Source: Euryarchaeota archaeon RBG_19FT_COMBO_69_17 (lineage in GTDB: Archaea > Thermoplasmatota > Thermoplasmata > RBG-16-68-12). From it: a stretch of 50,826 nucleotides of DNA. Shown one piece after another: positions 6,935 to 50,431 of the stretch. Within the stretch, counting starts at the first letter, position 1. Each line of letters starts with the position of its first letter. A program made the position numbers and the translations under genes. The notes below the pieces were generated by a model. It saw only the letters and a program-made list of their open reading frames with translations, was not told where the DNA came from and did no database searches. The stretch is taken from contig MGWD01000027.1 in the NCBI GenBank assembly GCA_001800825.1, positions 13,015 to 63,840 of the forward strand, written 5' to 3'.

Positions 6935-9900
6935 GGCCTCCCCTCCCTCGACGGCAGTTCGACTACTCGGGCACCCAGGCCGTCCGCTCCCTCCAGGAGG
7001 AGGGGGTGCGGGTCGTCCTCGTGAACAGCAACCCCGCGACGATCCAGACGGACCTCGGGACCGCGGACGTCACGTACGTGGAGCCCCTCACGGTCGAGTT
7101 CCTCGAGCGGGTCCTCGCGAAGGAGAGGCCCCAGGGCATCCTGAGCGGGATGGGCGGGCAGACCGCCCTCAACCTGTGCAGCGAGCTCGCGGAGCGCGGG
7201 GTCCTCGCGACGTACGGCGTCGAGCTGCTCGGCACGAAGCTCGAGGCGATCGCCGCGAGCGAGGACCGGGAGAAGTTCGCCTCCCTCATGCGGTCCATCG
7301 GGGAGCCCGTCCCGCGAAGCATGGCCGTGTCCGACGTCCCCGCGGCCCAGGCCTTCGCGGAGAAGGTCGGCTTCCCCGTCATCGTGCGGGCTGCGTACAC
7401 CCTGGGCGGCAGCGGGAGCGGGGTCGCCCGCGGGCACGAGGACCTCGAGCGGATCGCGGGTCTCGGCCTCGCGTACTCCCGGATCCACCAGGTCCTCGTC
7501 GAGGAGAGCGTCCTGGGGTGGAAGGAGTTCGAGTACGAGGTCATGCGGGACGGCGCGGACAACTGCATCACGATCTGCAACATGGAGAACATCGACCCCA
7601 TGGGCCTGCACACGGGGGAGTCGATCGTCGTGGCCCCCGCCCAGACCTTGAGCGACGGGGACCATCAGACCCTCCGGTCCGCGTCCCTCCGGATCATCCG
7701 CGCGCTCAAGATCGAGGGGGGATGCAACATCCAGTTCGCGGTCCACCCGACGACGGGGGAGTACCGCGTGATCGAGGTGAACCCTCGCGTCTCGCGGTCC
7801 TCCGCCCTCGCCTCGAAGGCCACGGGCTACCCGATCGCCCGGATCGCAGCGAAGATCGCGATCGGCCTCACCCTGAACGAGATCCCGAACGCGGTCACGG
7901 GGAAGACGAAGGCGTCCTTCGAGCCCACCCTCGACTACGTCGTCACGAAGATCCCTCGCTGGCCCTTCGACAAGTTCCCGACCGTGGACCCGCACCTCAG
8001 CACCTCGATGAAGAGCACGGGGGAGGTCATGGCGATCGGCCGGACGATCGAGGAGTCCCTCCTCAAGGCGGTCCGGTCCCTCGAGATCGGGAAGCTCGGC
8101 CTCGAGCCGGAGCCCTGGACGGACGACGCCCTGCGTGAGGAGCTCGGAGTCCCGACGGACAAGCGCCTCTTCGCGGTCGCGGAGGCCTTCCGCCGCGGAT
8201 GGCCCGTCGGGAAGGTCGCGGAGCTCAGCGCCTGGGACCCCTTCTTCCTCGAGAAGGTCCGGGCCATCGTGGCCATGGAGGCGCGCCTCCATGGGCGACG
8301 GTCCTCGCCCGCCCTCCTCGCGGAGGCGAAGCGGATGGGGTTCTCCGACGCGCGGATCGCGGCCCTCTCTGGAGGGACGGAGGCCTCCGTCCGCCGTCGC
8401 CGGCCGAGGGTCACGTACAAGATGGTCGACACGTGCGGGGGCGAGTTCGAGGCCCGGACGCCGTACTTCTACTCGACGTACGAGTCCGCGGGCGAGACCT
8501 CCCGGCTCCGAGGGCGCAAGGTCCTCATCGTCGGGGGCGGGCCCATCCGGATCGGCCAGGGCGTGGAGTTCGACAACTGCTGCGTCCACGGGATCCAGGC
8601 CCTCCGGGAGGCTGGCGTCACGGCGATCATCGCGAACAACAACCCGGAGACCGTGTCCACGGACTTCGACGTCTCGGACCGGCTCTACTTCGAGCCCCTC
8701 CAGCTGGAGGACATCCTCAACATCGTCGAGGAGGAGTCCCCGGACGGGATCATCCTCCAGTTCGGCGGGCAGACGTCCGTGAACCTCGCGGTCCCCCTCG
8801 CGAAGGCCCTGGCCCGCATGCGGGCCAGGACCCGGATCCTCGGCACCCCCCCGGCGTCCATCGACCTCGCGGAGGACCGTCGAAAGTTCGCGGCCCTCAT
8901 GCGCCGCCTCGGGATCCCCCAGCCCCGGGCCGCGTCGGGCTACGGCTTCTCGGAGGTGCGGGCCCTCGCGGGCCGGATCGGATATCCGGTCCTCGTCCGC
9001 CCGTCCTACGTCCTCGGAGGCCGCGGGATGGAGATCGTCCACTCCGAGGAGGAGCTCGAGCCGTTCATGGAGTCCGCGACCCGCGTCTCGCGGGACCATC
9101 CCGTCCTCGTGGACAAGTACCTCGACCACGCGACAGAGGTCGACGTGGACGTCGTCGCGGACGGCCGGGACATCTTCATCGGGGGGATCCAGGAACACGT
9201 CGAGGAGGCGGGGATCCACTCGGGGGACGCGACCCTCGTGATGCCGCCCACGACCCTCGGTCCCGACGTCCTCGGTCAGATCCGGACGATCACGCGCCGA
9301 GTCTGCAAGGCCCTGGGGATCGTCGGCCTCATGAATCTCCAGCTCGCCGTGAAGGACGGGAAGGTGTACGTCCTCGAGGCGAACCCGCGTGCGAGCCGGA
9401 CGGTCCCCTACGTGTCGAAGGCGATCGGCGTGCCCCTCGCGAAGGTCGCGACCCAGGTCATGCTCGGGTCGAGCCTGAGGCGCCTCGGGCTCGTTCGGGA
9501 GCCGCGCATCGACCACGTCGCCGTGAAGGCGTCCGTGTTCCCCTTCCAACGCCTCCCGGGTGTCGACGCGATCCTCGGGCCCGAGATGAAGAGCACGGGG
9601 GAGGTCATGGGGATCGACGGGACCCTCGGCCGGGCGTTCTACAAGGCGATGGTCGCCGCCGGGAACCCACTCCCCGTCGAGGGGGCCGTGTACATGACGG
9701 TCCGGGACGAGGACAAGCCCGCGGCGGCCGAGGTCGCCCGGCGGTTCGCCTCCTGCGGCCTCCGGATCTACGCGACCCGGGGCACGGCCCAGATCCTCCG
9801 GGAGCAGGGGGTCGACGCGAAGACGGTCTACCGGATCAGCGAGAACCAGTCCCCCGACGCGCTCGGGCTCATGCGCCGGGGCGAGATCCGGCTCGTCGTG

Positions 9901-15343: not shown

Positions 15344-15378
15344 CCTTTCGTACCGTCCCTCCCCTGGAGAGGGCTGCA

Positions 15379-16296
15379 TCAGAAGGTGGCGTGTCGGCGC
15401 GCTCGCGCAACGACCCGATCCCACGTCGGCAGGTTCGTCTGGGTCCCCTTCGTCTCGACGACGAAGCTCGCGACCGCAGAGCCGAGGATCCCGCAGCGAC
15501 GGAGGTCGAGGCCGCGGGCGAGCCCCGCGTAGAACCCCGCTCGGTACGCGTCCCCCGCGCCCGTGACGTCGACGACGCGCCCCGGCCGGACTCGAGGGAC
15601 GCGGACCTTGCCCTCGCGGGTGAAGATCACGCTCCCCCGCGACCCGAGCGTCGCGACGACCACCTCCGCATGCCGCAGGAGGCCCGCCGTTGACGTCGTC
15701 CCCGCGAACCGCTTCGCCCGTGCGATCTCCGCCTCGTTTCCGAAGAAGTACGTCGACCGGCGGAGGAGGCTGAGAAACAGGCTCCTCCGGTAGACGTAGT
15801 GGATCTCCTGGGAGGGGTCGAAGGCGATGGACCGGCCGAGATCCTCCGCGAGGTCCGCGACCCTCACATAGTACTCGGGCCGGCCCGTCCCGAGGTGGAC
15901 GAGCTCCACGTCCCGGACGCTGTGCCGAAGGACGGGCCGACGGGCCGTATCCTTCATGGGCCCTTGGTCCACGATCGCCATCTGGTTCCCCCGGCGGTCC
16001 GAGAACACCCAGGCCGTGGGGGTCGAGCGTCCTCGGACGACCCGGAGGTCCCGGAGGTCTACGCCGTCCTCGCGGAACGCGTCGCGGTAATCTTCGGGGA
16101 AGTCCGGGCCGACGAAGGACGCGAGGGAGGTGCGGACGCCGAGGCGCGCCGCCGCGCGGGCGAGGTTACCCGCCGTCCCCCCGAAGTACCGCCGCCGGTC
16201 GAGGATCTGGATCGACGTGTTCGGGTCGGGGAGCCGGGGGACCGTGACGATGTAGTCGAGGACGACATGCCCGAAGGCGCCGAGGAAGTTCTTCAC
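15379..16296 (-). CDS. PfkB-family carbohydrate/nucleoside kinase
   Basis: The start is placed at the GTG at 16296 (VKNFLGAFGHVVLDY), overlapping the upstream stop as GTGA. It has the PfkB signature DVTGAGDAYRAGF. The N-terminal 100 aa of the listed ORF are junk. Confidence 0.85.
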   Translation of the reverse strand: MKNFLGAFGHVVLDYIVTVPRLPDPNTSIQILDRRRYFGGTAGNLARAAARLGVRTSLASFVGPDFPEDYRDAFREDGVDLRDLRVVRGRSTPTAWVFSDRRGNQMAIVDQGPMKDTARRPVLRHSVRDVELVHLGTGRPEYYVRVADLAEDLGRSIAFDPSQEIHYVYRRSLFLSLLRRSTYFFGNEAEIARAKRFAGTTSTAGLLRHAEVVVATLGSRGSVIFTREGKVRVPRVRPGRVVDVTGAGDAYRAGFYAGLARGLDLRRCGILGSAVASFVVETKGTQTNLPTWDRVVARARRHATF

Positions 16297-30782: not shown

Positions 30783-32348
30783 TCAGGACCGTAGGATCTC
30801 CCGGGCTGCATTGTAGCCCGGCGCGCCCGTGACCCCGCCGCCGGGGTGGGCCCCCGAGCCGCACAGCCAGAGGCCGTCGATCGGGGTCCTGTACCGCCCC
30901 CATCCCGGGACGGGGCGGAGGAGGAACTGCTGGTCGAGGCTCATCTCCCCATGGTACACGTGCCCGCCCGTGAGGCCGAAGCGGGCCTCGAGGTCCGGCG
31001 GCGTGAGGATCTCCCGCCCGACGATCGAAGGCCGCAGGCCGGGGAACGCCTCCTCGAGGCGGTCGAGGACCTTCTCCCCGAGCTTCTCCCGGGCCTTGTC
31101 CCAGTCCCCCCGCCGCAGGCCGTACGGCGTGTACTGGACGAGGACGCCCATCACGTGCTTCCCGGGCGGCGCGAGTCCCGAATCCTCGAGGGTCGGCAGG
31201 ATGACGTCGAGGACGGGCTCGTCGGACGCCCTGCCGTACTTCGCGTCGTCGTACGCCCGCTCGACGTAGTCGAGGGAGGGCGCGAGGCGCGTGTGGACGG
31301 GCGGCCGCCCGTCCGCCGCGGGCGCGAACCGAGGGAGGGCGTCGAGGGCGAGGTTCATCTTCGTGAGGACGCCCGTCGCGCGGTACGCGCGGATTGCGGA
31401 GACGAAGGAGGGCTCGAGCTCCGCGGGGTCCACGAGCCGGAGGAACGTCCGCTGGGGGTCCGCGTTGCTCGCGACGGCCCGTGCGGGGACCCGCTCCCCG
31501 GAGGCGAGCTCGACGCCCACGGCCCGCCCGTCCTCCACGAGGATCCGCCGGACCTCTGCGTCCGTCCGGATCGTCGCGCCGGAGGCCCGGGCCGCGTCCG
31601 CGAGGGCGGCCGCGAGCTGTCCCATCCCCCCGCGCACGAGGGCCCATGAGCCGCCGTTGACGTACGCGAGGGCGCCGTGGAGGAGCCCGAACGCGGTCCC
31701 CGGGGACCGCGGCCCGCGGAACGATCCCAGGAGGGCGCCGAACGCGAGGGTCGCCCGGAGGAGGTCCGTCTCGAACCACTCCCTCAGAAGCTGGTGCAGG
31801 CTCATGGGCGGGAGCCGGAGCGCCTGCCCCATCGCGTCCTTCCCGAGCTTCCGGAGGCGTAGGGCGCGCCGGAGGAAGAAGGCCTGCTCGCCGAGGCCCA
31901 CCCCCGAGAGATCCGGGGGCGTCCGCAGGAGGAGAGGGTCCATGACGGCCGCGAGCTGGACGAGCATCTTGAGGAAGCGCGGGTACGCGGCCGCGTCGGC
32001 CGCGGAATGGGTCCGGAGTCCCTCCGCGGTCCGGGGGAGGTCCCGGAAGAGCGTGAGGGTGTCCCCGTCGTCCCCGAGGGCCACGAGCTCCGGGTCCACG
32101 GGGATCAGCCCGAGGCCGCGGGCCGCGAGCCCGAGGTCCCGGACGATCTCGGGCCGCAGGAGGCCGCAGAAGTCGGCGGCCGTCGAGGCCCGGAAGCCCG
32201 GCGCGATCTCCTCCGTCGCGGCGGCCCCGCCGACCTGGGACCGGCGTTCGAGGACCACGACCCGGCGGCCCGCCCTCGCGAGGTACGCGGCGGCCACGAG
32301 GCCGTTGTGCCCGCCCCCGACGATGGCCACGTCCCAGGCGTCCGCCAT
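30783..32348 (-). CDS. phytoene-desaturase-related (COG1233, PYROXD2-like) FAD/NAD(P) oxidoreductase, paralog 1
   Basis: It has WDVAIVGGGHNGLVAAAYLARAG...LERR...GGAA.TEE..PGF and the C-terminal LRPVPGW..YRTPI.GLWLCGSGAHPGGGV. Confidence 0.85.
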   Translation of the reverse strand: MADAWDVAIVGGGHNGLVAAAYLARAGRRVVVLERRSQVGGAAATEEIAPGFRASTAADFCGLLRPEIVRDLGLAARGLGLIPVDPELVALGDDGDTLTLFRDLPRTAEGLRTHSAADAAAYPRFLKMLVQLAAVMDPLLLRTPPDLSGVGLGEQAFFLRRALRLRKLGKDAMGQALRLPPMSLHQLLREWFETDLLRATLAFGALLGSFRGPRSPGTAFGLLHGALAYVNGGSWALVRGGMGQLAAALADAARASGATIRTDAEVRRILVEDGRAVGVELASGERVPARAVASNADPQRTFLRLVDPAELEPSFVSAIRAYRATGVLTKMNLALDALPRFAPAADGRPPVHTRLAPSLDYVERAYDDAKYGRASDEPVLDVILPTLEDSGLAPPGKHVMGVLVQYTPYGLRRGDWDKAREKLGEKVLDRLEEAFPGLRPSIVGREILTPPDLEARFGLTGGHVYHGEMSLDQQFLLRPVPGWGRYRTPIDGLWLCGSGAHPGGGVTGAPGYNAAREILRS

Positions 32349-32351
32349 GGA

Positions 32352-33950
32352 TCACGGCCTCCCGAGGCCCCAGTCCCGCAGGATCTCCCGGGCCGCGTTG
32401 TACCCGGGCGCCCCCATGACCCCCCCGCCCGGATGGGCACCCGAGCCGCATAGGTACAGCCCCTTGACGGGCGTGCGGTACTGGGACCACCCGGGCACGG
32501 GCCGCAGGAAGAAGAGCTGGTTCGGCCACAGCTCCCCCTGGAAGATGTTGCCGCCCGTGAGGCCGAACTCCTGCTCGAGGTCCCAGGGGGTGAGGACCTG
32601 CCGGTGGAGGATCGCCTTGGGCAGGTTCGGGGCGTACTCCGCGAGGGTCTCGACGACCGCGTCGCCGAACTCCTCCCGCCGCTCCTCCCACGTCCCCTTC
32701 CTCAACGTGTACGGCGCGTATTGGACGAAGATCGACATGACGTGCTTCCCGGGCGGGGCCATCCCGGGGTCCAGGGTCGACGGGAGGAGGCAGTCGAGGT
32801 ACGGGCGCTTCGAGAAATCCCCGTACTTCGCGTCGTCGTACGCCTTCTCGATGTAGTCCACGCTCGGGCTGATCGAGAGGGAGCCGCGGAGGTGCTCCCC
32901 CCTCCCCGGGAGGGACGTGAACTCCGGGAGCTCCTTCAGGGCGAGGTTTACCTTCCCGGAGGAACCCTCCGTGACGTAGGCCTCGATTCCCCGCACGAAG
33001 TCCGCGGGCAGTTCGCTCCTGTCGAGGAACGCCAGGAAGGTCCGTTTGGGGTCCACGCTCGACGCGACGGCCCTCGCCTCGATCCGCGTGCCGTCCGCGA
33101 GTTCGACCCCGACGGCCCGCCCGTCCCGGGTGGCGATGCGCCGCACGTCGGCGTCCGTCCGGATGTCCACCCCATGGGCGCGGGCCGCGGACGCGATGGA
33201 CTCGCTCACCATCCCCATCCCGCCCTTCACGAACCCCCAGGCCCGGAACGCGCCGTCGACCTCGCCCATGTAGTGGTGGATCAGCACGTACGCGGTCCCC
33301 GGCGACCGCGGGCCGAGGAACGTCCCGATGATCCCGCTCGCGGACATCGTCCCTTTGAGGACGTCCGTCTCGAACCACTCGTCGAGGTAGTCTGCAGCGC
33401 TCATCGTCAGGAGGCGTGCGAAGGTCGTGAGGACCTCCTCGTCGGCCCCCTTGAAGTAGCCCAGGAGCTCGAGGAGCTTCGCGACGTTTCCCGGGCTCAG
33501 GGAGCCGATGTCCGGGGGCGTCATCCCGAGCTGGGGCTTCACGAGCCGCGCGATGCGGACCATGAGCTGGCCGAACTTCGGGTACGCCTCCGCGTCCCGC
33601 TTCGAGAACTTGGCGATCGCCCGGCGGTTCTCCTCGGAGTCCCCGCCCCGGTACAGGTACCGGCCGTCGGGCATGGGGGAGAACGTCGACTCCACGGGGA
33701 CGATCTGGTACCCGTGGACCGGGAGGTCGAGGTCCCGGATGATCTCGGGCCTCAGGAGGCTACAGACGTACGAGCACTCCGTGTACTTGAACCCGGGATA
33801 GATCTCTTCCGTGACCGCGGCGCCCCCGAGGACTTTCCGTCGCTCGAGGACGAGGACCTTCTTGCCCGCCCGGCCCAGGTACGCGGCCGTCACGAGGCCG
33901 TTGTGCCCGCCCCCGATGACGATGACGTCGTACCCGTTCCCCGGCCCCAT
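32352..33950 (-). CDS. PYROXD2-like FAD/NAD(P) oxidoreductase, paralog 2
   Basis: The start is placed at the ATG at 33950 (MGPGNGYDVIVIGGGHNGL). Its stop lies 3 nt before the paralog 1 start. It shares the same N- and C-terminal motifs. Confidence 0.85.
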   Translation of the reverse strand: MGPGNGYDVIVIGGGHNGLVTAAYLGRAGKKVLVLERRKVLGGAAVTEEIYPGFKYTECSYVCSLLRPEIIRDLDLPVHGYQIVPVESTFSPMPDGRYLYRGGDSEENRRAIAKFSKRDAEAYPKFGQLMVRIARLVKPQLGMTPPDIGSLSPGNVAKLLELLGYFKGADEEVLTTFARLLTMSAADYLDEWFETDVLKGTMSASGIIGTFLGPRSPGTAYVLIHHYMGEVDGAFRAWGFVKGGMGMVSESIASAARAHGVDIRTDADVRRIATRDGRAVGVELADGTRIEARAVASSVDPKRTFLAFLDRSELPADFVRGIEAYVTEGSSGKVNLALKELPEFTSLPGRGEHLRGSLSISPSVDYIEKAYDDAKYGDFSKRPYLDCLLPSTLDPGMAPPGKHVMSIFVQYAPYTLRKGTWEERREEFGDAVVETLAEYAPNLPKAILHRQVLTPWDLEQEFGLTGGNIFQGELWPNQLFFLRPVPGWSQYRTPVKGLYLCGSGAHPGGGVMGAPGYNAAREILRDWGLGRP

Positions 33951-34005
33951 GGACTCCTCCCCTCCTGGTCTCGCGTCTCCTCCGCCCCGCCCACCGCCAC
34001 GGAAT

Positions 34006-34022
34006 CGTTTCCGGGGGAAACG
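34006..34022. promoter_or_regulatory. palindrome CGTTTCC-GGG-GGAAACG in a divergent intergenic region
   Basis: 7-bp arms. A second palindrome, ACGCT-TT-AGCGT, lies at 34037-34048. Both fall between the divergently transcribed paralog-2 and GcvT-like genes. Confidence 0.3.
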
Positions 34023-34165
34023 AGCGGTCCCACTTAACGCTTTAGCGTCTGGGCCCCTGTACGGAGACGTCACAACGTCGAGCGCGCAAAGGTTTTATCG
34101 AACCCGCGGCATCCCGCCGCATTCGGCGCGCGCCGCGCGCCGGAGGGGAAGTCGGGAGCGAGACG

Positions 34166-35353: not shown

Positions 35354-35408
35354 ACTCTCGGGTCCCCGGCAATCCATTTATCGGAGTTCCGGGTTGCGGC
35401 CCGTGGCG

Positions 35409-36971
35409 ATGCCGTCCTTCGACGCGATCATCATCGGCGGGGGCCACAACGGGCTCATCGCCGCCGCGTACCTCGCGAGGGCGGGCCTGAGGGCCCTCGT
35501 CCTCGAGCGCCGCCCGATCCTAGGGGGCGCGAGCATCACGGAGGAGATCCACCCCGGGTTCCGCGTGAGCACGCTCGCGTACGCATGCGGCCTCCTGCGG
35601 TCGGAGATCAAGGAGGAGCTCGAGCTCGAGCGATTCGGCCTCGACGAACGTCCGTACGACCCGTCCCAGTTTCTGCCGTTCCCCGACGGGAGGCACCTCC
35701 TGTTCCGTCACGACGCGGCGTGGAACGCGGAGCAGGTCGCGAAGTTCTCCAGGGCGGACGCGCAGGCCCTCCCCCGGTACGAACGGTTCTGGAGGGAGTT
35801 CGCGGAGCTCGTGGAGCCCACGCTCCTCGCCCCGCCCGTCTCCCTCGCGGACCTCGTGTCCCTCGTGCGGACCCCCGAGGCGGAGGACTTCCTCCGCCAG
35901 CTCATGCTCCGCTCCGTCGCGGACCTCCTCGACGACTTCTTCGAGTCCGACGAGGTCAAGGCGTCCTTCGCGACGAGCGCGGTCGCAGGCACCCTCGCAG
36001 GGCCCCGGACCCCCGGCACGGCGTTCGTCCTCGGCCACCACACCCTCGGGACGATCCGGGGCCAGAAGGGGGTGTGGGGCTGGGTACGGGGTGGGATGGG
36101 GGCGATCCCCGATGCGATCGCCCGGGCGGCCCGCGCACACGGGGCGGAGATCCGCACGTCCGCACCCGTCTCCCGGATCCTCGTGCGGGACGGCCGCGTC
36201 GCGGGCGTGGAGATTCTGGACGGGGCGCGGATCGAGTCCCGGGTCGTCGTGAGCGGCGTAGACCCCCGGCGCACGTTCCTTGGCCTCGTCGGCGCGGACC
36301 ACCTGCCCGAGGACTTCGTGCGGGCCGTCGCGCGGATCCGCATGGAGTCGTCCTCGTTCAAGTTGAACCTCGCCCTCCGGGAGCTGCCCGACATCACCGC
36401 GGTCCCCGGGACCCACCTCCAGGACCACCACCGGGCGATCCTCGACATCGCGCCGTCCATGGACTACCTCGAGAGGGCCTTCGACGACGCGAAGTACGGC
36501 CGGCCGTCCCGGGAGCCGTTCCTCGAGTTCGTGATCCAGAGCGCGAACGACCCGACCGTCGCGCCGCCGGGGATGCACACCCTCACCGTGTCCGCGAAGT
36601 TCGCCCCTTTCGATCTCGCGAAGGGCACCTGGGACGACGAGGGGGAGGCGTTCGCGGACCGCATCCTCGAGACCCTCGAGGCGTACGCCCCGAACCTCCG
36701 GCGGGCCGTCGTCGCGAAGCACATCTACACGCCGCTCGACATGGAACGGGAGCACGGGATGACCCGGGGGGACGTGTTCCACGGGGCGATCCTGCCGTAC
36801 CAGATGTTCTCGTTCCGCCCCGTCCCGGGCTGGTCCCAGTACCGGACCCCCGTCGAGGGGCTCTACCTGGGCGGGGCCGGCGCCCACCCGGGCGGCGGCG
36901 TCCTCGGCGCCCCGGGTCGGAACGCGGCCACGGCGGTCCTCGAGGACTGGCCCCGTCTCAAGGGCGCCTGA
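35409..36971 (+). CDS. PYROXD2-like FAD/NAD(P) oxidoreductase, paralog 3
   Basis: ATG at 35409 (MPSFDAIIIGGGHNGLIAAAYLARAG). The listed TTG at 35394 is possible. It ends with the same C-terminal motif, RPVPGWSQYRTPVEGLYLGGAGAHPGGGV. Confidence 0.85.
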   Translation: MPSFDAIIIGGGHNGLIAAAYLARAGLRALVLERRPILGGASITEEIHPGFRVSTLAYACGLLRSEIKEELELERFGLDERPYDPSQFLPFPDGRHLLFRHDAAWNAEQVAKFSRADAQALPRYERFWREFAELVEPTLLAPPVSLADLVSLVRTPEAEDFLRQLMLRSVADLLDDFFESDEVKASFATSAVAGTLAGPRTPGTAFVLGHHTLGTIRGQKGVWGWVRGGMGAIPDAIARAARAHGAEIRTSAPVSRILVRDGRVAGVEILDGARIESRVVVSGVDPRRTFLGLVGADHLPEDFVRAVARIRMESSSFKLNLALRELPDITAVPGTHLQDHHRAILDIAPSMDYLERAFDDAKYGRPSREPFLEFVIQSANDPTVAPPGMHTLTVSAKFAPFDLAKGTWDDEGEAFADRILETLEAYAPNLRRAVVAKHIYTPLDMEREHGMTRGDVFHGAILPYQMFSFRPVPGWSQYRTPVEGLYLGGAGAHPGGGVLGAPGRNAATAVLEDWPRLKGA

Positions 36972-37864: not shown

Positions 37865-37976
37865 GGGGTGCCGCCGGACAAGCGGCGCGGCCTCTTGAAG
37901 GTACACCTAGGAACCGAACCTATTTCCGTCCCACCGTGGTCCCGAGGCGCGGTCGGCAGGACGGAGGCCTACGGAG

Positions 37977-39146
37977 ATGGGACGCGCATACGCGGTCGTC
38001 GGCGCGGGGCGGCAGGGGACGGCGGCGGCCTACGACATGGCGAGGTTCGGCGACGCGGACGAGGTCGTCCTCGCGGACGTGGACCTGGCGCGGGCGCGGA
38101 AGGCCGCGGCGCGGGTGAACCGCCTGGTGTCCCACCGGGTCGCGCGGGGCGTCACGGCCGACGTGCGCCGGGAGGCGTCCGTTCGACGCGTCCTCCGGGA
38201 CGCGGACGTCGCCCTGAGCGCGGTCCCGTACTTCTTCAACCTGGGGCTCGCGAAGCTCGCCCTCGAGACGAAGACCTCCTTCGTCGACCTCGGAGGCAAC
38301 ACGGACATCGTCCGGAAGGAACAGGCCCTCGACCGGCAGGCGAGGAAGGCGGGGGTCGCAATCGTCCCGGACTGCGGGATGGGCCCGGGCCTCAACGTGA
38401 CCTTGTCCGTCCGCTCGATGGAGCTGCTCGACGTCCCCGAGCGCGTCGTCGTGTACGACGGGGGCCTGCCCCAGGACCCGAAGCCCCCGTGGAACTACGA
38501 GCTCACGTTCAATATCGAGGGCCTGACGAACGAGTACCACGGCACGGCGCCCGCGATCCGGGACGGGCGGGTCGTCCGGCTGCCCGGCTTCTCGGAGTAC
38601 GAAGTCGTGGACGTCCCGGGCGTGGGGCGCCTCGAGGCGTTCGTCGTCGCGAGCAGCCTGTCCACGGCCCCGTGGTCCTTCCTGGGGATCCTGAAGTCCT
38701 ACGAGGGCAAGATCCTCCGGTACCCCGGCCACTTCGCCCAGATGACCGCGTTCCGGGACCTGGGCCTCTTCGAACTCGAGCCCGTCGTCGTCGACGGGAG
38801 GCCCGTCGTCCCGCGCCACGTGTTCCACGCCCTCTACGAGTCCCAGGTCACGCCGAAACAGATCCGGGACGTGTGCATCGAACGGGCCGTGGCCCGCGGG
38901 ACGAAGGACGGCCGCCCCGCGGAGGCCGTCGTCGAGCTCGTCGACCGGGCCGACGAGGCCACCGGCTTCACGTCGATGGAGCGGCTCACGGGCTGGCACG
39001 CGGCGATCGTGGCGGAGATGATCGCGCACGGCCGAATCCCTCCGGGCGCCCATCCCGTCGAGCTCGGCGTGCCCGCGGGCCCCTTCGTCGAGGAAGGGCG
39101 CCGCCGCGGCCTTCGGATCACGGAAGAGGTGCGGCCGACGGCTTGA
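37977..39146 (+). CDS. saccharopine dehydrogenase-family protein (lysine-6-dehydrogenase-like)
   Basis: It has the N-terminal Rossmann motif YAVVGAGRQG and the family motif PDCGMGPGLNV. Confidence 0.75.
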   Translation: MGRAYAVVGAGRQGTAAAYDMARFGDADEVVLADVDLARARKAAARVNRLVSHRVARGVTADVRREASVRRVLRDADVALSAVPYFFNLGLAKLALETKTSFVDLGGNTDIVRKEQALDRQARKAGVAIVPDCGMGPGLNVTLSVRSMELLDVPERVVVYDGGLPQDPKPPWNYELTFNIEGLTNEYHGTAPAIRDGRVVRLPGFSEYEVVDVPGVGRLEAFVVASSLSTAPWSFLGILKSYEGKILRYPGHFAQMTAFRDLGLFELEPVVVDGRPVVPRHVFHALYESQVTPKQIRDVCIERAVARGTKDGRPAEAVVELVDRADEATGFTSMERLTGWHAAIVAEMIAHGRIPPGAHPVELGVPAGPFVEEGRRRGLRITEEVRPTA

Positions 39147-39148
39147 CC

Positions 39149-42100
39149 CTACGTCCGGCCGTTCGCGGGACCCGGACCCGGGCCCTTCGGCGCCTCGAGA
39201 GGGCTCAGCCCGCGCATGAATCCGCCCGTCTCCTTCGCCCCGTAGAGGCGTTCGAGGAGCAGCTTGACGTCCGAGATCCGGTCCATGTCCCCGTTCCAGT
39301 CCACGAGGACGCCCTTGAACCGCTTCTCGACCTCGCGCACGACCTCCTGGGCTCGGCGGTCGATCCGGCCCGAGGCGCGCCCGCGGTACAGGACGAGGAG
39401 GGTCACGTACTGCCCCTTCGCGAGGGCGACCCGGTGGTCCGCGAGCTCGATGCTCTTGAGTTCCCCGACTCCCAGGGAATGGAAGGACTCGTTCATGAAG
39501 GCCTGGATCGCCGTGAACATGGAGGCGACGAGGTCGGGGTCCTTGTCCGCCGTGAGTGTGCGGGACAGGTGGACGAGGGGGATCCCTCCTCCGTAGATCA
39601 GGAACACGTGCTCGGTCGTGGAGCGAAGGGCGCGCGTCATGACGATCACGACGCCCGCCCCGGCGAGGGCGAGGAGCCAGGGGAGCAGGGTCGAGAACAG
39701 GTCCGGGCCGACGATCTGGACGCTCAGGGTGAGGTACGTCGCGAGCTCGAAGTCCAGGATGCTCACGTTGACGAGGTCTTCCCGCACGCTGTCGGGGTAG
39801 TCGAAGATTACGAGGAGGCCCTGGGTCTGGACGTAGGGGTGGGTCGTCCAGGCCCGGAGCGCGTCCCCCTCGACGTCCCATACGTAGTCGAAGAGGTTGA
39901 AGAAGAACGAATGGTCCCGCGACACGATGACGGGGATCTCGGTGAAGCGCGGCGCATCGTTCACGGGCCTTACGGTGACCTTGATCGTGTCCTCCGAATA
40001 GGCCCCCCGCTCGTCCCGCGCGCGGAACGTGACCTGTTCGATTCCGTACCAGTCCGGGACCTGGCTCTGGAAGTCGACGGAGTGGTCCGTCCGGATCGTG
40101 ACCTCGAGGTTCACCTGGCCCGAGGTGTAGAAGATCGTTGAGCCTGGGTCCACGTCGATGAAGTACGTGTCGAGGTTGAAGGCTCCGACGCGGGGGACGT
40201 CCTCGAGGAAGCTCTGGTCCGGGATCGGGATCACGAGCACGGGCGGGTGGTCGTCTGTCACGGAGACGCTCGTGATGAGCCGTCCCTCGTCGACCGTGTC
40301 GTTCGCCACGATCACGAGCGGCAGGACATACGGCGTCGTCAGGAAGGGCGGGATGGAGAAAGGGAACAGCATCTCGAGGACGGTCCCGTTCACGGTCACG
40401 TACGCGGGTTTGTCCGTCGAGATGCGGATCTCGGAGAGGGCGTTGTCGGGGTCCGTGATGTGCGGCGCGAGGTCGAAGCGGTACGTCTCGTTGTAGTGGA
40501 CGACGAACGGCGGGAGGTAGGCGATCGACGGCGGGTCGTTCACGGGCTGGACCGTCACGAGGATCGTATCCTCCGCGATGGCCCCCTGGGGGTCCTCCGC
40601 CCGGAACGTGAGGGACTCCGCCCCGAACCAGTTCCCGAGGGCCCGGATGTCCACGGAGTGGTTCGCCTGGATGATCGCCTCGACATGGCTCGCGCCGTAC
40701 GAGTAGAAGAGGGCGTCGTTGTCGGGGTCCTGGAAGTAGTCGTCGAGGTCGAAGACCCCCGTCCGCAGCTCCCCCTCCCACAGGGTCACGTCCTCGAGGG
40801 ACCGTATGAGGACGGGCGGGGTGTCGTCCGAGACGCCGATTGCCGCGGAGTGCCTCGCCTGGAGCTGGCCGTCGTCGACCGTGAAGATCACGAAGTCCCA
40901 GGGCTCCGCGTAGTTGGCGGGGTAGTTGAAGCGGACCGTGAGGTTCCCCGTGAACCCCGTCACGTGGGGACTGTTCGTCACGAGGCGGAGCTCGCTGTCC
41001 AGGTTGTCGATGTCGAAGATGTGGGGGCCGAAGTCGAAGTAATAGGGAGCGCCGCGGCGGACGTGCATCGTGGTTGGCGCGAAGGGACCGAAGACGGGGG
41101 CGTCGTTGACCGGAGTGATGTTGACCCAGAGGGGCTGGGCATCATACCGGTTCCCCTCGTCGAAGATGATGAGGGTCACCACGTTCGACCCGTAGGCGTT
41201 CGGCTGGGGGTAGAAGGTGAGGGTGTGGTTCCCCGTGATGTTCCCGCCCTGGTACTCGAAGAGGCTTCGGTTGACCCCCGCGAGGTCCCAGCGTCGGAGC
41301 TGGATCGGGGTGTCAGGGTCTTGGGAGTAGCTCGTGAGATCGAGGGACCAGCTGTACGTGTCCTCCGGGTAGATCTGGTTCGGGACCGTACCGCGGATCG
41401 AAGGTTCCAGGTTCTCGTTGTACAGGACGTCGAGGACCGGGACGAACGTCGCGTTCCCTTCGCGGGATGCGAGGGTCGTGATCCCGGGCACGCTTTCGTC
41501 GGACGCCTTGATCACGAGGCCGACGTTGGGCTGGGCCAGGCTCGTCCAGGACTGCACGAGGCTCGTGACGTTCCAAGAGGCCCAAGCGCCCGTGGCGGGG
41601 GAAAGGGCGAGCGCGGCCCGCGTCGCGTCGTAGTCCGAGCCGGGGGCCGCCCACAAGGTCGTCCCGTCCGTCGTGCGCCACGTCACGCCGGTCCCCGAGA
41701 GGCTCTCGTGGGCCGGCAACGTCGGCAGGAGGAGGGGGGCCCCGTCGGGCGAGTTCCCGTCGAGGAACCGCCCCGTCATGTTGTAGTTGTACCCCGTCAT
41801 CCGGAAGTCGTGCCCGAGGCTCGCGGTCGAGTACGCGTACGTCCGGTCGCGGGAACTGAAGACGATCTCCATTGTCCCGTCCCCGTCGAGGTCCGCGACG
41901 GCGGGGGTCGCCGTGACACCCGTCGTGGTCGGGAAGGACCGGATGAGGCCGCCCGAGGTCGTCGGGTCGAAGACGTACAGGTTCCCCGCCCAGCTCCCGA
42001 TCAGGACGTCCTCCACGCCGTCGAGGGTCACGTCCGCGGCCGCGGGCACCGCGTACACGGCGCCGCTCACGCCGGACGTCCAGAGGGTGTTCGGGTTCGG

Positions 42101-43696
42101 CGAGGTCGAGTCGATCGCCCGGACCGAATTCCGCCGGGTCAAGGCGAAGAGGGTCTCCGTCAGCCCGTCGTCCTCGAAGTCGACGAGGATCTGGCCGCCG
42201 AACTGGTTCGAGAGGGACTGATGGTTCCAGACGACGATGCCATCCGTCCCGCGGAACGCGAATTGGTTCCCGTTGTTCCCCTGATCTCCCGCGACGATGT
42301 CCAGGTATCCGTCCCCGGTGAAATCTGCGAGACTCGGGGTCACGACCGTCGTCTGCGTGGTCGGGCTGTAGATTGCGGCCGTGGTCCCGTTCGGGTTGAC
42401 GATGTAGAAATTCCCGCCCGTTGTCGTGTACGTGATCTCGGGGCCGGGGCCCCCTCGCACGTTCCCGACTGCGGCGCCGTACCCCCAGTCGGATCCGGCC
42501 GCGATGCCGATGGACCATCGGAATGTCCCGTTGTTCGCGAAGAACGAGTAGAGCTCCTTGTCCTGGGACCCGACATAGATTTCCTTGATTCCGTCCCTGT
42601 CCGTGTCGGACAGGGCGATGGGGGAGAGGATCGCGTTCGCGGGGTACAGGCCGGAGTCCCAGAGGTACTGGCCGTCCCAGGTGAGGGCGTACAGGCGCAC
42701 GTCGGAGGGCCCGTTCACCGCGTAAAGCACCTCGGGGTGCGCATCCCCGACGACGTCCGCGACCGTGAGCACGTAATCGACGGGGGCCGTGGCCAGGTAC
42801 TTCCACAGCTCCGACCCGTCCGCCCGCAGGGCGTAGATCCAGCCCGTCGTGGACCCGAAGACGATCTCCATCCGGCCGTCGAGGTCGAGGTCCGCGGCCG
42901 TAGGGGATGCGTAGTTGGATCCGTTCGGGTAGGACCACAGCTGGTTCCAGGGGGTGACCGTCCGGTACGGGGGGACGACGGCCAGGGAGTTGCCGAACTG
43001 GAGGGAGTACGTCGCAGTCTGCATCGCGGGAACCGTGGCCCCGAAGACGACGTGGAGTTCCGTGATCGCGGAGCCCCAGTACGTGTCCCCGTAGATCTGG
43101 CTCGGGACCTCCCGGCCCGCGTCGTCGTAGACTCGGAAGTCCGCGAGGGTCGTCGTCGTGAGGTTCACGGGGAGGACATACCGGATGTCGACGGGTTCCC
43201 GGAGCCGCGAGACGCCTGCGGTCTCCCGGAGGACGATGGGCTGGCGGTACGCGAACTGGCTCCCCGTGCCCTCCGTCCAGGGCGTCCGGACGCGGTGCAC
43301 GTCGAGGACCTGGCCCGCGGGTCCGTCGAGGACATAGCCGCGGAGGGTCGCGTCGAGGATCGTCGCCTGGCGGGGGATCGCGGACAGGTTGAACCGGAGG
43401 GCTCCTCGGTAGATGACGCCCGTCCCCACCCCGACCCCGATCTGGTCGCTCCCTCCGTAGTTGCGGTCAGGGTTCCTCGATTCGATGAAGGCGTCGGCGA
43501 CGGCGGGGAAGGTCCCTTGGGTCGCTCGGGGGGTCGGGGAGGGAGCGTCGGCTGTGCTCGGATCCGCCGCGGGGACGCGGGCCGCCTCGGCCGCCGCGAA
43601 GGCCGGATCCGGAGGGCTTGGCCACGAGGAGAGGAGGATGGCGAAGAGGAGCAGTAGGAGGATGACGCGCGCTGTGCGTCGCTCTCGTGACGGCAT
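39149..43696 (-). CDS. giant (1515 aa) type-I membrane surface protein: signal peptide, two DNRLRE-like modules, FG-GAP/VCBS propeller, six cadherin-like Ig modules, one TM, cytoplasmic globular tail
   Basis: Uninterrupted ORF with GC3-rich codons. The signal peptide is RRTARVILLLLLFAILLSS...AFA|AAE. There are at least six DxDxDG Ca-loop repeats. The V.PVNDAP / DD.PPVL module ends repeat. The TM helix is LLPWLLALAGAGVVIVM, at about nt 39635-39700. Confidence 0.85.
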   Translation of the reverse strand: MPSRERRTARVILLLLLFAILLSSWPSPPDPAFAAAEAARVPAADPSTADAPSPTPRATQGTFPAVADAFIESRNPDRNYGGSDQIGVGVGTGVIYRGALRFNLSAIPRQATILDATLRGYVLDGPAGQVLDVHRVRTPWTEGTGSQFAYRQPIVLRETAGVSRLREPVDIRYVLPVNLTTTTLADFRVYDDAGREVPSQIYGDTYWGSAITELHVVFGATVPAMQTATYSLQFGNSLAVVPPYRTVTPWNQLWSYPNGSNYASPTAADLDLDGRMEIVFGSTTGWIYALRADGSELWKYLATAPVDYVLTVADVVGDAHPEVLYAVNGPSDVRLYALTWDGQYLWDSGLYPANAILSPIALSDTDRDGIKEIYVGSQDKELYSFFANNGTFRWSIGIAAGSDWGYGAAVGNVRGGPGPEITYTTTGGNFYIVNPNGTTAAIYSPTTQTTVVTPSLADFTGDGYLDIVAGDQGNNGNQFAFRGTDGIVVWNHQSLSNQFGGQILVDFEDDGLTETLFALTRRNSVRAIDSTSPNPNTLWTSGVSGAVYAVPAAADVTLDGVEDVLIGSWAGNLYVFDPTTSGGLIRSFPTTTGVTATPAVADLDGDGTMEIVFSSRDRTYAYSTASLGHDFRMTGYNYNMTGRFLDGNSPDGAPLLLPTLPAHESLSGTGVTWRTTDGTTLWAAPGSDYDATRAALALSPATGAWASWNVTSLVQSWTSLAQPNVGLVIKASDESVPGITTLASREGNATFVPVLDVLYNENLEPSIRGTVPNQIYPEDTYSWSLDLTSYSQDPDTPIQLRRWDLAGVNRSLFEYQGGNITGNHTLTFYPQPNAYGSNVVTLIIFDEGNRYDAQPLWVNITPVNDAPVFGPFAPTTMHVRRGAPYYFDFGPHIFDIDNLDSELRLVTNSPHVTGFTGNLTVRFNYPANYAEPWDFVIFTVDDGQLQARHSAAIGVSDDTPPVLIRSLEDVTLWEGELRTGVFDLDDYFQDPDNDALFYSYGASHVEAIIQANHSVDIRALGNWFGAESLTFRAEDPQGAIAEDTILVTVQPVNDPPSIAYLPPFVVHYNETYRFDLAPHITDPDNALSEIRISTDKPAYVTVNGTVLEMLFPFSIPPFLTTPYVLPLVIVANDTVDEGRLITSVSVTDDHPPVLVIPIPDQSFLEDVPRVGAFNLDTYFIDVDPGSTIFYTSGQVNLEVTIRTDHSVDFQSQVPDWYGIEQVTFRARDERGAYSEDTIKVTVRPVNDAPRFTEIPVIVSRDHSFFFNLFDYVWDVEGDALRAWTTHPYVQTQGLLVIFDYPDSVREDLVNVSILDFELATYLTLSVQIVGPDLFSTLLPWLLALAGAGVVIVMTRALRSTTEHVFLIYGGGIPLVHLSRTLTADKDPDLVASMFTAIQAFMNESFHSLGVGELKSIELADHRVALAKGQYVTLLVLYRGRASGRIDRRAQEVVREVEKRFKGVLVDWNGDMDRISDVKLLLERLYGAKETGGFMRGLSPLEAPKGPGPGPANGRT
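39701..41407 (-). repeat. coding tandem repeat: three A/B double modules (~190 aa each) of cadherin-like domains
   Basis: A modules end ITPVNDAPVF / VQPVNDPPSI / VRPVNDAPRF (nt ~41110, ~40545, ~39960). B modules end VSDDTPPVL / VTDDHPPVL. A2 and A3 align along their whole length. Confidence 0.6.
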
Positions 43697-44222: not shown

Positions 44223-45233
44223 TCATTCCTCGTCCCGTGTCGTCACGTCCGCCTCGGTCGCGACTTCGGTCCCTTCTGGGCCTGGCGGCCTCTTTCTCCG
44301 AAACGGCCAGAGCTCCCGCCCGATCTCGCGGAGTCTCCGACGGGCGCCGGGGTGGCGGCTCAGGTAGACCTCGAGGAGCGTGAAGGCCAACGGGGTCCCG
44401 ACGAGCAGGCCCAGGGAGACATTCAGGCCGAACCAGCTGTTCGCGGGTGCCCCCCGGTCCGGGTGCGTGGATCCCCACCACTCGCAGCATCCCGTGCCCT
44501 CGCGGAACAGGGTCAGCTTGATGAGCCCGAACCACGGGAGCTCCCCCCGCGCCCGGCCGACGACGAAGTCGACGGGGATCACCCATCGGTCGAACTTCGT
44601 GATCGTCGTGTAGGCGTTGTGGTCCCCCATCGTGAGGAACCCGTCCCGCTGCCCTCCGACGGCGATGGACCGATCGCCCTCCGTGAGGTTGAAGAACACG
44701 GTCAGGTCCCGGGCCCATCCCGCCCGGTATAGGATGAACCGAGCGATCCCCGCCGTATCCTGCGTCGGCGCGCCGCCCGGCAGGAAGGCATCCCAGTCCT
44801 CCTCCGGCAAACGGCCGAGGTCCGGGACGTCGTAGGCGCCAGCTGTGGCGTTCCAGAGGACGTAGGCGATCGCCCGGTGGATGAACACGGTCCCGCCGAG
44901 GTTCGCGGGATTCCGGAACACGATCACGTCTCCGAAGTCCCCGTAGGTCCCGTGCCCGCCCGCCCGGCCCTCGAGGTACGTGACGACGTCCGCGCGGGAG
45001 TACACGGCCTGCACGAGGACGATGTCGCCCGTGTCGATCGCCCCGATCATGCTCTCCGTGTCGGAGTGCTGCATGCTCCCGCTCTCCACGGAGACCATCG
45101 GCGGCCACGTGCGGGCGTACGTGAAGATCCCCCCGAGGATCGCTGCGAACACGATCCCAGCGAGAAGGAGGGACCGGAGCGTGCGGCGCCATGCTTCCCG
45201 GACGTCGACCTCGGCGTCCTCCGCAGGGTCCAC
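44223..45233 (-). CDS. Sec11/archaeal-type signal peptidase I (S26B) with insertion and C-terminal extension
   Basis: Box B is VESGSM (Ser), box C is GDIVLV, box D is FIHRAI (His) and box E is MGDHN...D. There are N- and C-terminal TM helices and an acidic tail. Confidence 0.8.
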   Translation of the reverse strand: MDPAEDAEVDVREAWRRTLRSLLLAGIVFAAILGGIFTYARTWPPMVSVESGSMQHSDTESMIGAIDTGDIVLVQAVYSRADVVTYLEGRAGGHGTYGDFGDVIVFRNPANLGGTVFIHRAIAYVLWNATAGAYDVPDLGRLPEEDWDAFLPGGAPTQDTAGIARFILYRAGWARDLTVFFNLTEGDRSIAVGGQRDGFLTMGDHNAYTTITKFDRWVIPVDFVVGRARGELPWFGLIKLTLFREGTGCCEWWGSTHPDRGAPANSWFGLNVSLGLLVGTPLAFTLLEVYLSRHPGARRRLREIGRELWPFRRKRPPGPEGTEVATEADVTTRDEE

Positions 45234-49957: not shown

Positions 49958-50431
49958 CTAGGCGGGCCGGAGGGGCGCCTCCTGGGCTGGGACGTCCCAG
50001 GTCATTGCGAGGAAGTCCCGGAGGCCTCGAACGCGGTCCATGTCGCCGTCCCACGTCTCGAGGACGTCCGCGAAACGTTGCTCGATCTCGCGGACGAGGT
50101 CCTCCACGCGCCGCTCGAGACGGTTCGACTCGCGCCCGCTGTACAGGACGTACAAGAGGACCCACCGCCCCCTCCCGAACGTGACGTGGTGCCGCCCCCC
50201 CATTTCGATGCTCCGCACGCCCCCGACGCCGAGGTCGTGGAAGGAGTCGTCCATGAAGGTCTGGATTGCGGTGAACATGGACGCGATGAGGTCGGGGTCC
50301 TTCTCCGACGGCAGACGCCGGGAGAGGTGGACGAGGGGCGTCCCACCCGCGTACGTGAGGTAGACGTGCTCGATCTCACGGCGGAAGAGGCGCGATGGAC
50401 CGAGGTGGGCGGGACGGGAGAGGGTCGGCAT
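49958..50431 (-). CDS. soluble paralog of the cytoplasmic tail domain of the giant surface protein
   Basis: 157 aa with no TM helix. Residues 21-140 align by hand at roughly 55-60% identity with residues ~1362-1480 of ORF 39149..43696 (EHV[FY]L.Y.GG.PLVHLSR.L...KDPDL.ASMFTAIQ.FM..SFH.LGVG...SIE). Confidence 0.7.
   Translation of the reverse strand: MPTLSRPAHLGPSRLFRREIEHVYLTYAGGTPLVHLSRRLPSEKDPDLIASMFTAIQTFMDDSFHDLGVGGVRSIEMGGRHHVTFGRGRWVLLYVLYSGRESNRLERRVEDLVREIEQRFADVLETWDGDMDRVRGLRDFLAMTWDVPAQEAPLRPA

Follow-up and report, generated by a model that had tools for sequence, protein, structure and literature searches.

A large surface protein of Thermoplasmata archaea with a tail domain of predicted longin/roadblock fold

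Our analysis concerned a 50,826-nt stretch of contig MGWD01000027.1 from Euryarchaeota archaeon RBG_19FT_COMBO_69_17 (contig positions 13,015 to 63,840; hereafter the window, numbered from its first nucleotide) and focused upon the gene at 39149..43696 on the minus strand, which is a real, conserved gene for a surface glycoprotein of 1515 aa. The most informative feature of this protein is its tail, the 159 aa that lie C-terminal to its single transmembrane (TM) helix, the identity of which had not been recognized in an earlier note made from the DNA letters alone. The tail carries a domain of a large family, seen so far in Thermoplasmatota alone, and structure models predict for it a fold of the longin/roadblock class. 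What we consider new is a very large tail family in a known fold class, located directly behind the TM helix of type I surface proteins from a non-Asgard archaeal phylum; the ectodomain is a further member of known adhesin types. We lean towards reading the protein as a glycosylated adhesin or receptor that bears a docking module as its cytoplasmic tail, with the binding of a ligand by the head, the pairing of the tail, and the involvement of a GTPase being steps that we infer.

The tail domain, its family and its predicted fold

Hydropathy analysis of the 1515-aa protein identified two strongly hydrophobic stretches, at aa 8-30 and aa ~1333-1356. The first lies within a signal peptide of aa 1-34 (43595..43696; RERRTAR / LLLLLFAILLSS / AFA|AAE; here and below, all mapped parts of the protein are encoded on the minus strand), which was assigned by rule rather than by a predictor. 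The N-terminus MPSRERRTAR-VILLLLLFAILLSSW-PSPPDPAFA|AAE combines a positively charged n-region with a hydrophobic core and an AxA site, all of which agree with the signal peptide and cleavage site proposed in the earlier note. The second stretch is the single TM helix (aa 1333-1356; 39629..39700), which has a Kyte-Doolittle hydropathy >2.0, is helical in the AlphaFold2 (AF2) model, and is followed by R/R, as in the positive-inside pattern. With the helix placed by hydropathy, the tail domain starts 2 residues past its end and spans aa 1359-1487 (39236..39622), where the mean identity among orthologues is 54%, roughly equal to that of the ectodomain modules. The last residues (aa 1488-1515; 39152..39235) form a poorly conserved C-terminal extension with 25% mean identity and pLDDT <50. 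Our results are consistent with the single TM helix and folded tail of ~150 aa that had been proposed previously.

The orientation of the tail can be judged from its family as a whole. Among 114 family members, the 12 residues past the TM helix contain a mean of 2.55 lysines plus arginines versus 0.58 ahead of the helix. For the 81 members with ≥300 residues ahead of the helix, N-x-S/T sequons occur at 2.32 per 100 aa ahead of it versus 0.11 past it, and the parts ahead contain 0.2% Cys. In addition, the domain is present in proteins that have no hydrophobic segment ahead of it. Because of the asymmetry in both positive charges and sequons and the occurrence of the domain in proteins lacking a preceding hydrophobic segment, we conclude that the tail domain faces the cytoplasm and that the protein is type I, which is also the topology that was originally suggested.

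A HMMER search of 1.84 billion cluster representatives yielded 2337 matches to the tail domain at E≤1e-3 and 454 at E≤1e-10. Our architecture counts refer to the best 150 of these 2337 matches, 114 of which have a TM helix before the domain, separated from it by a median gap of 5 residues (range 2-26). The domain is located at the very C-terminus in 104 of the 114 TM-bearing members, and >300 residues precede the helix in 80 of them. The ectodomains ahead of the tail are mutually unrelated, as they contain DUF11/CLIPPER, CARDB, PKD, FG-GAP, He_PIG, or Big_9 domains. Further arrangements include tandem pairs of the domain behind a membrane anchor (P0056, P0088, P0100, and P0158), an insertion into a STAND AAA_16-TPR protein (P0173), a fusion to DUF835 (P0124), and soluble single-domain proteins of 150-160 aa. 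All of the members that carry an organism name belong to Thermoplasmatota. It should be noted that the related loci described below (L001 and so on) were fetched with a narrower tail alignment (A2), which creates a bias towards close relatives. The tail domain matched no Pfam (E≤0.1) or NCBIfam family, and scans of several relatives likewise found none over the domain, while searching all PDB sequences with the tail profile (hmmsearch) returned chance-level matches alone, including Asgard Roadblock at E 0.53. We also found no description of this family in the literature on roadblock and longin domains in archaea and Thermoplasmatota, on archaeal integrin-like proteins, and on surface-protein tails of Thermoplasmatota, of which our coverage was incomplete.

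The window encodes a second member of the family. An HMM scan of its six-frame translation identified a soluble, stand-alone paralogue of 157 aa on the minus strand (49958..50431), 6 kb away from the surface-protein gene, which shares 55% identity with the tail over 129 aa (E 3e-52), has no TM helix or other hydrophobic segment, and matches no Pfam or NCBIfam family. The tail of the 1515-aa protein is nearer to this soluble paralogue (~55% identity) than to the tails of other surface proteins (~30-38%). Orthologues of the paralogue, which are 150-160 aa in length, form >90 clusters in related metagenomes and metagenome-assembled genomes (MAGs) and are widespread in soil Thermoplasmata, often adjoined, as in this window, by a DsbA-like gene on the opposite strand.

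Several unusual members were also observed. Ten are giants of 1100-2300 aa with 2-3 copies of the tail-family domain (P0044, P0051, P0055, P0057, P0063, P0074-P0076, P0147, and P0159), and no hydrophobic helix lies ahead of any copy (P0044 corresponds to locus L024, 8001-14516). Their repeated block consists of long helical (coiled-coil) repeats, a CARDB-like immunoglobulin (Ig) domain, and the tail-family domain, and DUF5915 is found at the C-terminus. These giant coiled-coil proteins might act as a scaffold beneath the membrane, with which surface-protein tails would pair. At locus L029 (4112-13675), three tail-bearing genes are adjacent, two of which are tandem genes for large DUF11/CLIPPER surface proteins, while the third is a weaker match on the opposite strand encoding 367 aa. 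Locus L028 contains a stand-alone DUF835 gene and a canonical Robl_LC7 gene (15363-15848, 7890-8279) located ≤2 kb from a tail-bearing FG-GAP/PKD surface protein.

The fold of the tail was predicted from two independent AF2 models. That of the tail, which included the TM helix, was built upon an alignment of 16 sequences and has a mean pLDDT of 71 (core 79-95), while that of the soluble paralogue was built upon 19 sequences and has a mean pLDDT of 77 and a pTM of 0.71 (core 80-96). Both models have a beta-beta-alpha-beta-beta-beta-alpha-alpha order around a five-stranded antiparallel sheet, which is the arrangement of a longin domain. When compared with the PDB using Foldseek, the top 50 matches of the tail model were all longin/roadblock proteins (best E 3.4e-4), among them LAMTOR, MglB, AP sigma, COPI zeta, TRAPP, Fuzzy/Inturned, Mon1-Ccz1, and Asgard Roadblock. 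The top 50 of the paralogue model were nearly all of the same class, with the Ykt6 longin domain in first place (E 2.7e-3 over 139 columns). The paralogue model also yielded a TM-score of 0.61-0.64 against Sec22b, and its roadblock matches span only ~105 columns. We additionally used hhalign to compare the family profile with Ykt6 and LAMTOR2; neither gave a significant match, and the LAMTOR2 alignment (E 0.15) was topologically sensible over 93 columns. The roadblock domain is a circular permutation of the longin domain with an N-terminal helix (PMC3747258), which corresponds to an order of a-b-b-a-b-b-b. In the tail model, the position of roadblock helix 1 is taken by the TM helix, while the soluble paralogue has no N-terminal helix at all and two C-terminal helices instead. 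As modeled, the order of the tail domain is that of longin rather than roadblock, and a predicted fold of the longin/roadblock class is well supported.

The tail resembles the longin domains of Ykt6, Sec22b, AP sigma, COPI zeta, TRAPPC1/2/4, Mon1-Ccz1, and SRX in its predicted b-b-a-b-b-b-a-a order, whereas it has no detectable sequence or profile similarity to them. Its placement is different as well: in the longin SNAREs, the domain is N-terminal and the TM segment is at the far end, whereas here the domain is C-terminal and behind the TM helix of an exported protein. With Roadblock/LC7 proteins (MglB, LAMTOR2/3, and Asgard Roadblock), the tail shares a five-stranded sheet and flanking helices, which Foldseek superposes with an rmsd of ~3 Å over ~105 residues. 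These proteins are small, soluble, and dimer-forming, and the 157-aa paralogue is also small and soluble. On the other hand, neither the tail nor the soluble paralogue matched Pfam Robl_LC7 (PF03259), and in the L028 genome a canonical Robl_LC7 gene coexists separately with members of the tail family. We know of no membrane-tethered roadblock domain on a surface receptor, and none was found in the literature on roadblock and longin domains in archaea and related topics. MglB-type genes adjoin small GTPase genes, as does one divergent tail subfamily described below. A review from 2013 concluded that prokaryotes have no longin domains (PMC3747258), and the subsequent reports of prokaryotic longin domains concern Asgard archaea.

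The gene, its orthologues and its ectodomain

The open reading frame (ORF) at 39149-43696 begins with the first possible start codon, an ATG, and continues without interruption for 1515 aa, just as the earlier note had described it. Its codon-position GC content of 0.62/0.47/0.92 is the same signature that is found in genuine genes of this 70% GC window. Two long ORFs in other frames also cover parts of the gene; one is antisense (40247-43657, plus strand, 1136 aa), and the other lies on the minus strand (37920-40781, 953 aa). Neither exhibits the coding pattern of GC at the third codon position (GC3); both are artefacts of the 70% GC content that may mislead automatic gene callers. Since the window is rich in such spurious ORFs, with the 1136-aa antisense ORF as an example, it could be argued that the 1515-aa ORF is an artefact as well, either as a spurious long ORF in high-GC DNA or as the product of chimeric or collapsed repeats. 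We regard this reading as effectively refuted. The GC3 signature of the frame fits genuine coding, and 6 Pfam families plus 1 NCBIfam domain model match the protein above their curated cutoffs. A collapsed or chimeric assembly is unlikely because the DNA repeats inside the gene share just 63-77% identity and 19 collinear orthologues come from other, independent assemblies.

A total of ~20 full-length orthologues were identified at 37-61% identity, exclusively from Thermoplasmata MAGs. The 19 from unrelated assemblies are 1445-1523 aa long, align from end to end, and have the same module order, and each examined contig has one full-length copy, the length of which is kept across the lineage. 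The named relatives are all metagenome-assembled Thermoplasmata from soils and sediments and include "Euryarchaeota archaeon RBG_16_68_13," "Thermoplasmata archaeon," and "Methanobacteriota archaeon," while the NCBI names of the orthologues are "DNRLRE domain-containing protein" or hypothetical. Direct counts agreed with several features listed in the earlier note. The protein has 0 Cys, even though the Cys content of 0.69% over 30 other genes of the window would predict ~10, and this lack is conserved, as the orthologues contain 0-2 Cys per ~1500 residues (n = 20). There are 19 N-x-S/T sequons, where more than 15 had been noted, with 18 located N-terminal to the TM helix and 1 C-terminal to it, and the gene is indeed the largest in the window, followed by that of the carbamoyl-phosphate synthase large chain (1108 aa). 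The protein is also acidic, with 177 D+E versus 96 K+R. From its sequence, we consider it to be a probable surface glycoprotein that is specific to this lineage of uncultured Thermoplasmata from soils and sediments.

The ectodomain contains two DNRLRE/CBM96 modules, as had been noted, the first of which is located at aa 62-144 (43265..43513) and the second at aa ~668-765 (41402..41695). NCBIfam NF033679 (DNRLRE; 93.4 bits versus a cutoff of 34) and Pfam CBM96 (PF24517; E 8e-13, 49 bits versus a cutoff of 26) each match both stretches, and module 2 also has a Disaggr_repeat match at aa 703-756. Direct pairwise alignment of the two modules did not yield a z above 4, even though the family models match both. 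Module 1 is followed by a conserved domain (aa ~150-245; 42962..43249) that matched no Pfam or NCBIfam model. Orthologues share a mean pairwise identity of 56% over this domain, in which many columns are invariant, including R-x-R-E-P and E-V-P-S-Q motifs. Next is a beta-propeller of the FG-GAP/VCBS type (aa 246-629; 41810..42961), which is matched in 6 stretches by FG-GAP_3 (E 1.9e-22, 80.1 bits versus a cutoff of 26.9) as well as by FG-GAP (34.8 bits versus a cutoff of 22.1), Beta-prop_CGLA, and PQQ_2. When laid out in blocks of 48 residues, the propeller consists of 8 repeats in exact register, and a Ca loop of the D-x-D-x-DG type (Dx[DN]xDG-like) is present in 7 of the 8. Thus, the previous estimate of at least six Ca-loop repeats was right but low. 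The BamB/PQQ_2 propellers, which we take to be an 8-bladed family, agree with this number. Because of the exact 48-aa register over aa 246-629, we conclude that the head is, as judged by sequence register, an 8-repeat Ca-loop FG-GAP propeller rather than the 7-bladed type of integrins. The stalk (aa 766-1325; 39722..41401) is composed of three A/B pairs of Big_9/cadherin-like/tandem-95 modules, in accordance with the three cadherin-like double modules proposed earlier. A1, A2, and A3 align mutually, as do B1, B2, and B3 (z = 5.5-40 versus shuffles), with matches to Big_9 (E 1.7e-9, 38.9 bits versus a cutoff of 23.6), Cadherin_4 (26 bits versus a cutoff of 25.1), and the tandem-95 model NF012211 (E 1.5e-19, 69.7 bits, below its cutoff of 90).

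The protein had also been called integrin-like, which is appropriate as a description of its layout. Similar to integrin alpha subunits and to bacterial proteins with integrin-type propellers, it has FG-GAP repeats with Ca-binding loops as a head, an Ig-like leg, a single TM helix, and type I topology. It differs in having 8 repeats of 48 aa by sequence register instead of 7 blades, a stalk of Big_9/tandem-95 modules instead of thigh and calf domains, two extra DNRLRE/CBM96 modules, and a folded tail of 130 aa instead of a short GFFKR-type peptide; the GFFKR motif does not occur in the translated 1515-aa sequence. In addition, no vWA or beta-I-like gene that might encode an integrin beta-type partner was found among the window genes scanned. 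The integrin likeness is an analogy of layout, not family membership, because of the 8 repeats, the non-thigh/calf stalk, the globular tail, and the lack of a beta-subunit-like partner in the window. The same ectodomain building blocks occur in large prokaryotic adhesins with FG-GAP/VCBS, cadherin-like, and tandem-95 repeats. Those adhesins end in a C-terminal sorting peptide, are autotransporters, or are secreted, whereas this protein has a TM helix and a conserved globular domain on the cytoplasmic side.

The composition of the head raises the question of whether the propeller and CBM96-like modules might form a cell-bound glycan unit for feeding, in which polysaccharides are captured or degraded and the tail has no special role. 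The CBM96 match and a Pfam match to the lambda-carrageenase beta-propeller (E 6.9e-11) would be in line with this possibility, as would the alginate binding of the module on which CBM96 was founded (PMC9971899). Nevertheless, no catalytic family was matched, the propeller matches amount to generic similarity of the FG-GAP/VCBS/PQQ type, and none of the neighbouring genes encodes a carbohydrate-active enzyme or a sugar transporter. A role in feeding would also leave unexplained why the tail is conserved on par with the ectodomain modules, and we consider it quite improbable.

Small GTPase genes and other neighbours

In one divergent subfamily of tail-bearing proteins, which have a DNRLRE/CBM96-type ectodomain, a TM helix, and a tail, a Ras-family GTPase gene (Pfam Ras, E 1.4e-33) is located ~100 nt downstream on the same strand at 8 of 8 loci (L013, where it spans 2361-2963, L019, L046, L047, L072, L076, L078, and L082). 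These eight loci share 86-99% nucleotide identity and represent one genus-level lineage, since they differ at only 1-14% of nucleotides. The GTPase gene is followed by an MFS-like transporter gene and then, 3-5 kb on, by a soluble tail paralogue. In L013 (299-2963), the ectodomain is encoded in one frame and the TM-plus-tail part in another, which points to a frameshift or to an error in assembly. Ras-like genes of a second kind, with a VGKTSLI[RK]RYV motif, were found 2-9 kb from family members at L001/L031, L021/L105/L110, and L030, and in L001/L031 this gene (3539-4051 in L001) sits near an orthologue of the 1515-aa protein. Overall, 13 Ras-like genes were identified in the 1.09 Mb of fetched loci, most of which represent the same synteny in related genomes.

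A gene located 527 nt upstream of the surface-protein gene (44223..45233, minus strand) encodes a 336-aa candidate for a divergent Sec11-type signal peptidase I. Of the Sec11 gene that the earlier note placed 0.5 kb upstream, the distance and the S/H/D motifs stand, but the match to TIGR02228 is below the cutoff (E 2.6e-5, 24.1 bits versus 51.85, and confined to aa 23-87) and there is no Pfam match, so that we regard the call as plausible. S53-M54, H119-R120, and G203-D204-x-N206 are invariant in 4 homologues, and we presume these to be the Sec11-type catalytic motifs. The protein also has an insertion of ~80 aa amid the motifs, an invariant Cys-Cys pair, and a C-terminal hydrophobic segment. 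The Sec11-like gene occupies the same position in L001, L022, and L023, and it is replaced in the locus of a distant orthologue (L002). A functional tie to the surface protein is possible but unproven, because the whole neighbourhood is syntenic in L001/L022/L023 and the gene is replaced in L002.

The neighbourhood also bears upon whether the tail might serve as a sorting or biogenesis tag, by which a cytoplasmic machine would target, cluster, retain, or load the surface proteins that carry it, with extracellular vesicles or a certain site of the cell as possible destinations. The strict placement of the domain, which immediately follows the TM helix and closes the sequence of exported proteins that are otherwise highly diverse, would suit such a tag, as would the tandem clusters of tail-bearing genes (three in a row in L029) and the occurrence of the eukaryotic longin fold in the SRP receptor, adaptor small subunits, and SNAREs, all of which are sorting-related. 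However, no conserved processing or partner gene adjoins the examined family members, the known prokaryotic sorting tags are short peptides rather than 130-aa domains, and the Sec11-like neighbour works on the outer face of the membrane, where it cannot read a cytoplasmic tag. Overall, we find a sorting function improbable.

The rest of the window is an ordinary archaeal chromosome that includes genes for carbamoyl-phosphate synthase, PAC2, AdoHcy hydrolase, and a Y-family polymerase. Between 23318 and 39146, there are three paralogues resembling FAD amine oxidase/phytoene desaturase (30783-32351, 32352-34094, and 35394-36971), together with a GCV_T-type aminomethyltransferase gene, two saccharopine-dehydrogenase-like genes, and a gene for a tandem AHSA1/SRPBCC protein. 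The synteny of this group extends to L001, L022, and L023, and its genes may encode a conserved amine or polyamine pathway.

Possible function and significance

In the adhesin/receptor model that we favor, a Sec signal peptide exports ~1300 acidic, Cys-free, sequon-rich residues in the order DNRLRE/CBM96 module, unmatched conserved domain, propeller, second DNRLRE/CBM96 module, and six Ig/cadherin-like stalk modules, after which the TM helix serves as an anchor. As predicted from its sequons, the protein would be an N-glycosylated adhesin or receptor on a long Ig-like stalk, and Ca-dependent binding by its head would be directed at a ligand outside the cell, probably a glycan. On the cytoplasmic side, the tail may pair side by side with a second copy, which could be another tail or, most simply, the soluble paralogue, and the paired tails would then form a platform to dock a cytoplasmic partner, as longin/roadblock domains do. 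A small Ras-family GTPase would be the best candidate for this partner, and surface events could in this way be coupled to organization under the membrane. We propose a dimeric platform because longin/roadblock domains generally form side-by-side dimers that provide a platform for a small GTPase (PMC3747258), of which MglA/MglB is a prokaryotic case (PMC4316618), because tandem-pair architectures exist in the family, and because a soluble paralogue is encoded in the same window. The proposed link to a GTPase and to signalling is based upon the Ras adjacency at 8 of 8 loci, the Ras-like genes 2-9 kb from other members, and the fusions to STAND AAA_16-TPR and DUF835.

A number of points weigh against this model. 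The fold derives from predicted models, each built upon a shallow alignment of just 16-19 sequences, and Foldseek scored the matches modestly, with E values no better than 3e-4 and 3e-3 and TM-scores of 0.45-0.70, while no sequence or profile method (Pfam, NCBIfam, hmmsearch of the PDB, or hhalign) ties the tail to longin/roadblock proteins. In view of these modest statistics and the missing support from sequence methods, we accept the predicted fold and hold the homology of the tail with longin/roadblock domains to be unproven. With respect to the GTPase, no small GTPase gene is present in the window, and none lies ≤10 kb from the soluble paralogue on three long contigs (L025-L027), so that the link is not general for the soluble paralogue. 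The tight adjacency belongs to a divergent member of one genus-level group, not to the 1515-aa protein. Given the negative results for the window and L025-L027, we put forward the link to a GTPase as a reasoned hypothesis rather than as a finding. We consider coupling of the tail to a GTPase to be plausible but unproven.

The main alternative is that the protein is a structural envelope glycoprotein, S-layer-like or part of a glycocalyx, which would constitute the main, presumably abundant coat of the cell and would be fastened by its tail, like the many other tail-bearing surface proteins, to a sub-membrane scaffold such as the giant coiled-coil proteins, with no role in signalling. The adhesin/receptor and envelope models would both depend upon dimerization of the tail, and many of the features described above suit the latter as well. 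An acidic, Cys-free, sequon-rich protein with a C-terminal TM anchor resembles archaeal envelope glycoproteins, the single full-length copy per examined contig and the conserved length are what might be expected of a coat protein, a tail common to >100 ectodomain architectures would suit generic anchoring, and the scaffold-like giants with no TM helix ahead of the domain bear the same domain. However, identity of 50-60% across genera together with invariant Ca-loop and DNRLRE motifs fits a ligand binder better than a fast-evolving lattice protein. Moreover, the fold family is best known for the regulation of GTPases and SNAREs, and the Ras-adjacent and STAND-fused members suggest signalling. 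A purely structural role seems unlikely to us, if still worth serious consideration.

Longin/roadblock domains are standard platforms for small-GTPase regulation in eukaryotic membrane traffic and in bacterial polarity, and to our knowledge longin-order domains are hardly known in prokaryotes outside Asgard archaea. Against this background, a domain of predicted longin fold turns out to be what very many archaeal surface proteins (2337 cluster representatives) have in common at their cytoplasmic end. Defining this family as a domain would help to annotate thousands of surface proteins of archaea that are now called "hypothetical." A more speculative extension, to which we give only tentative credence, is that Thermoplasmatota possess a phylum-wide transmembrane coupling system in which hundreds of surface proteins share the longin-type tail, pair with soluble paralogues, and dock Ras GTPases or STAND ATPases. 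If true, this would be a longin-order GTPase platform outside of eukaryotes and Asgard archaea that serves as the cytoplasmic end of surface receptors. If the tail does pair with its paralogue or dock a GTPase, it would show how the wall-less or thinly walled Thermoplasmatota link the outside of the cell to its inside, and it would provide a non-Asgard data point on the age of membrane-tethered longin platforms.

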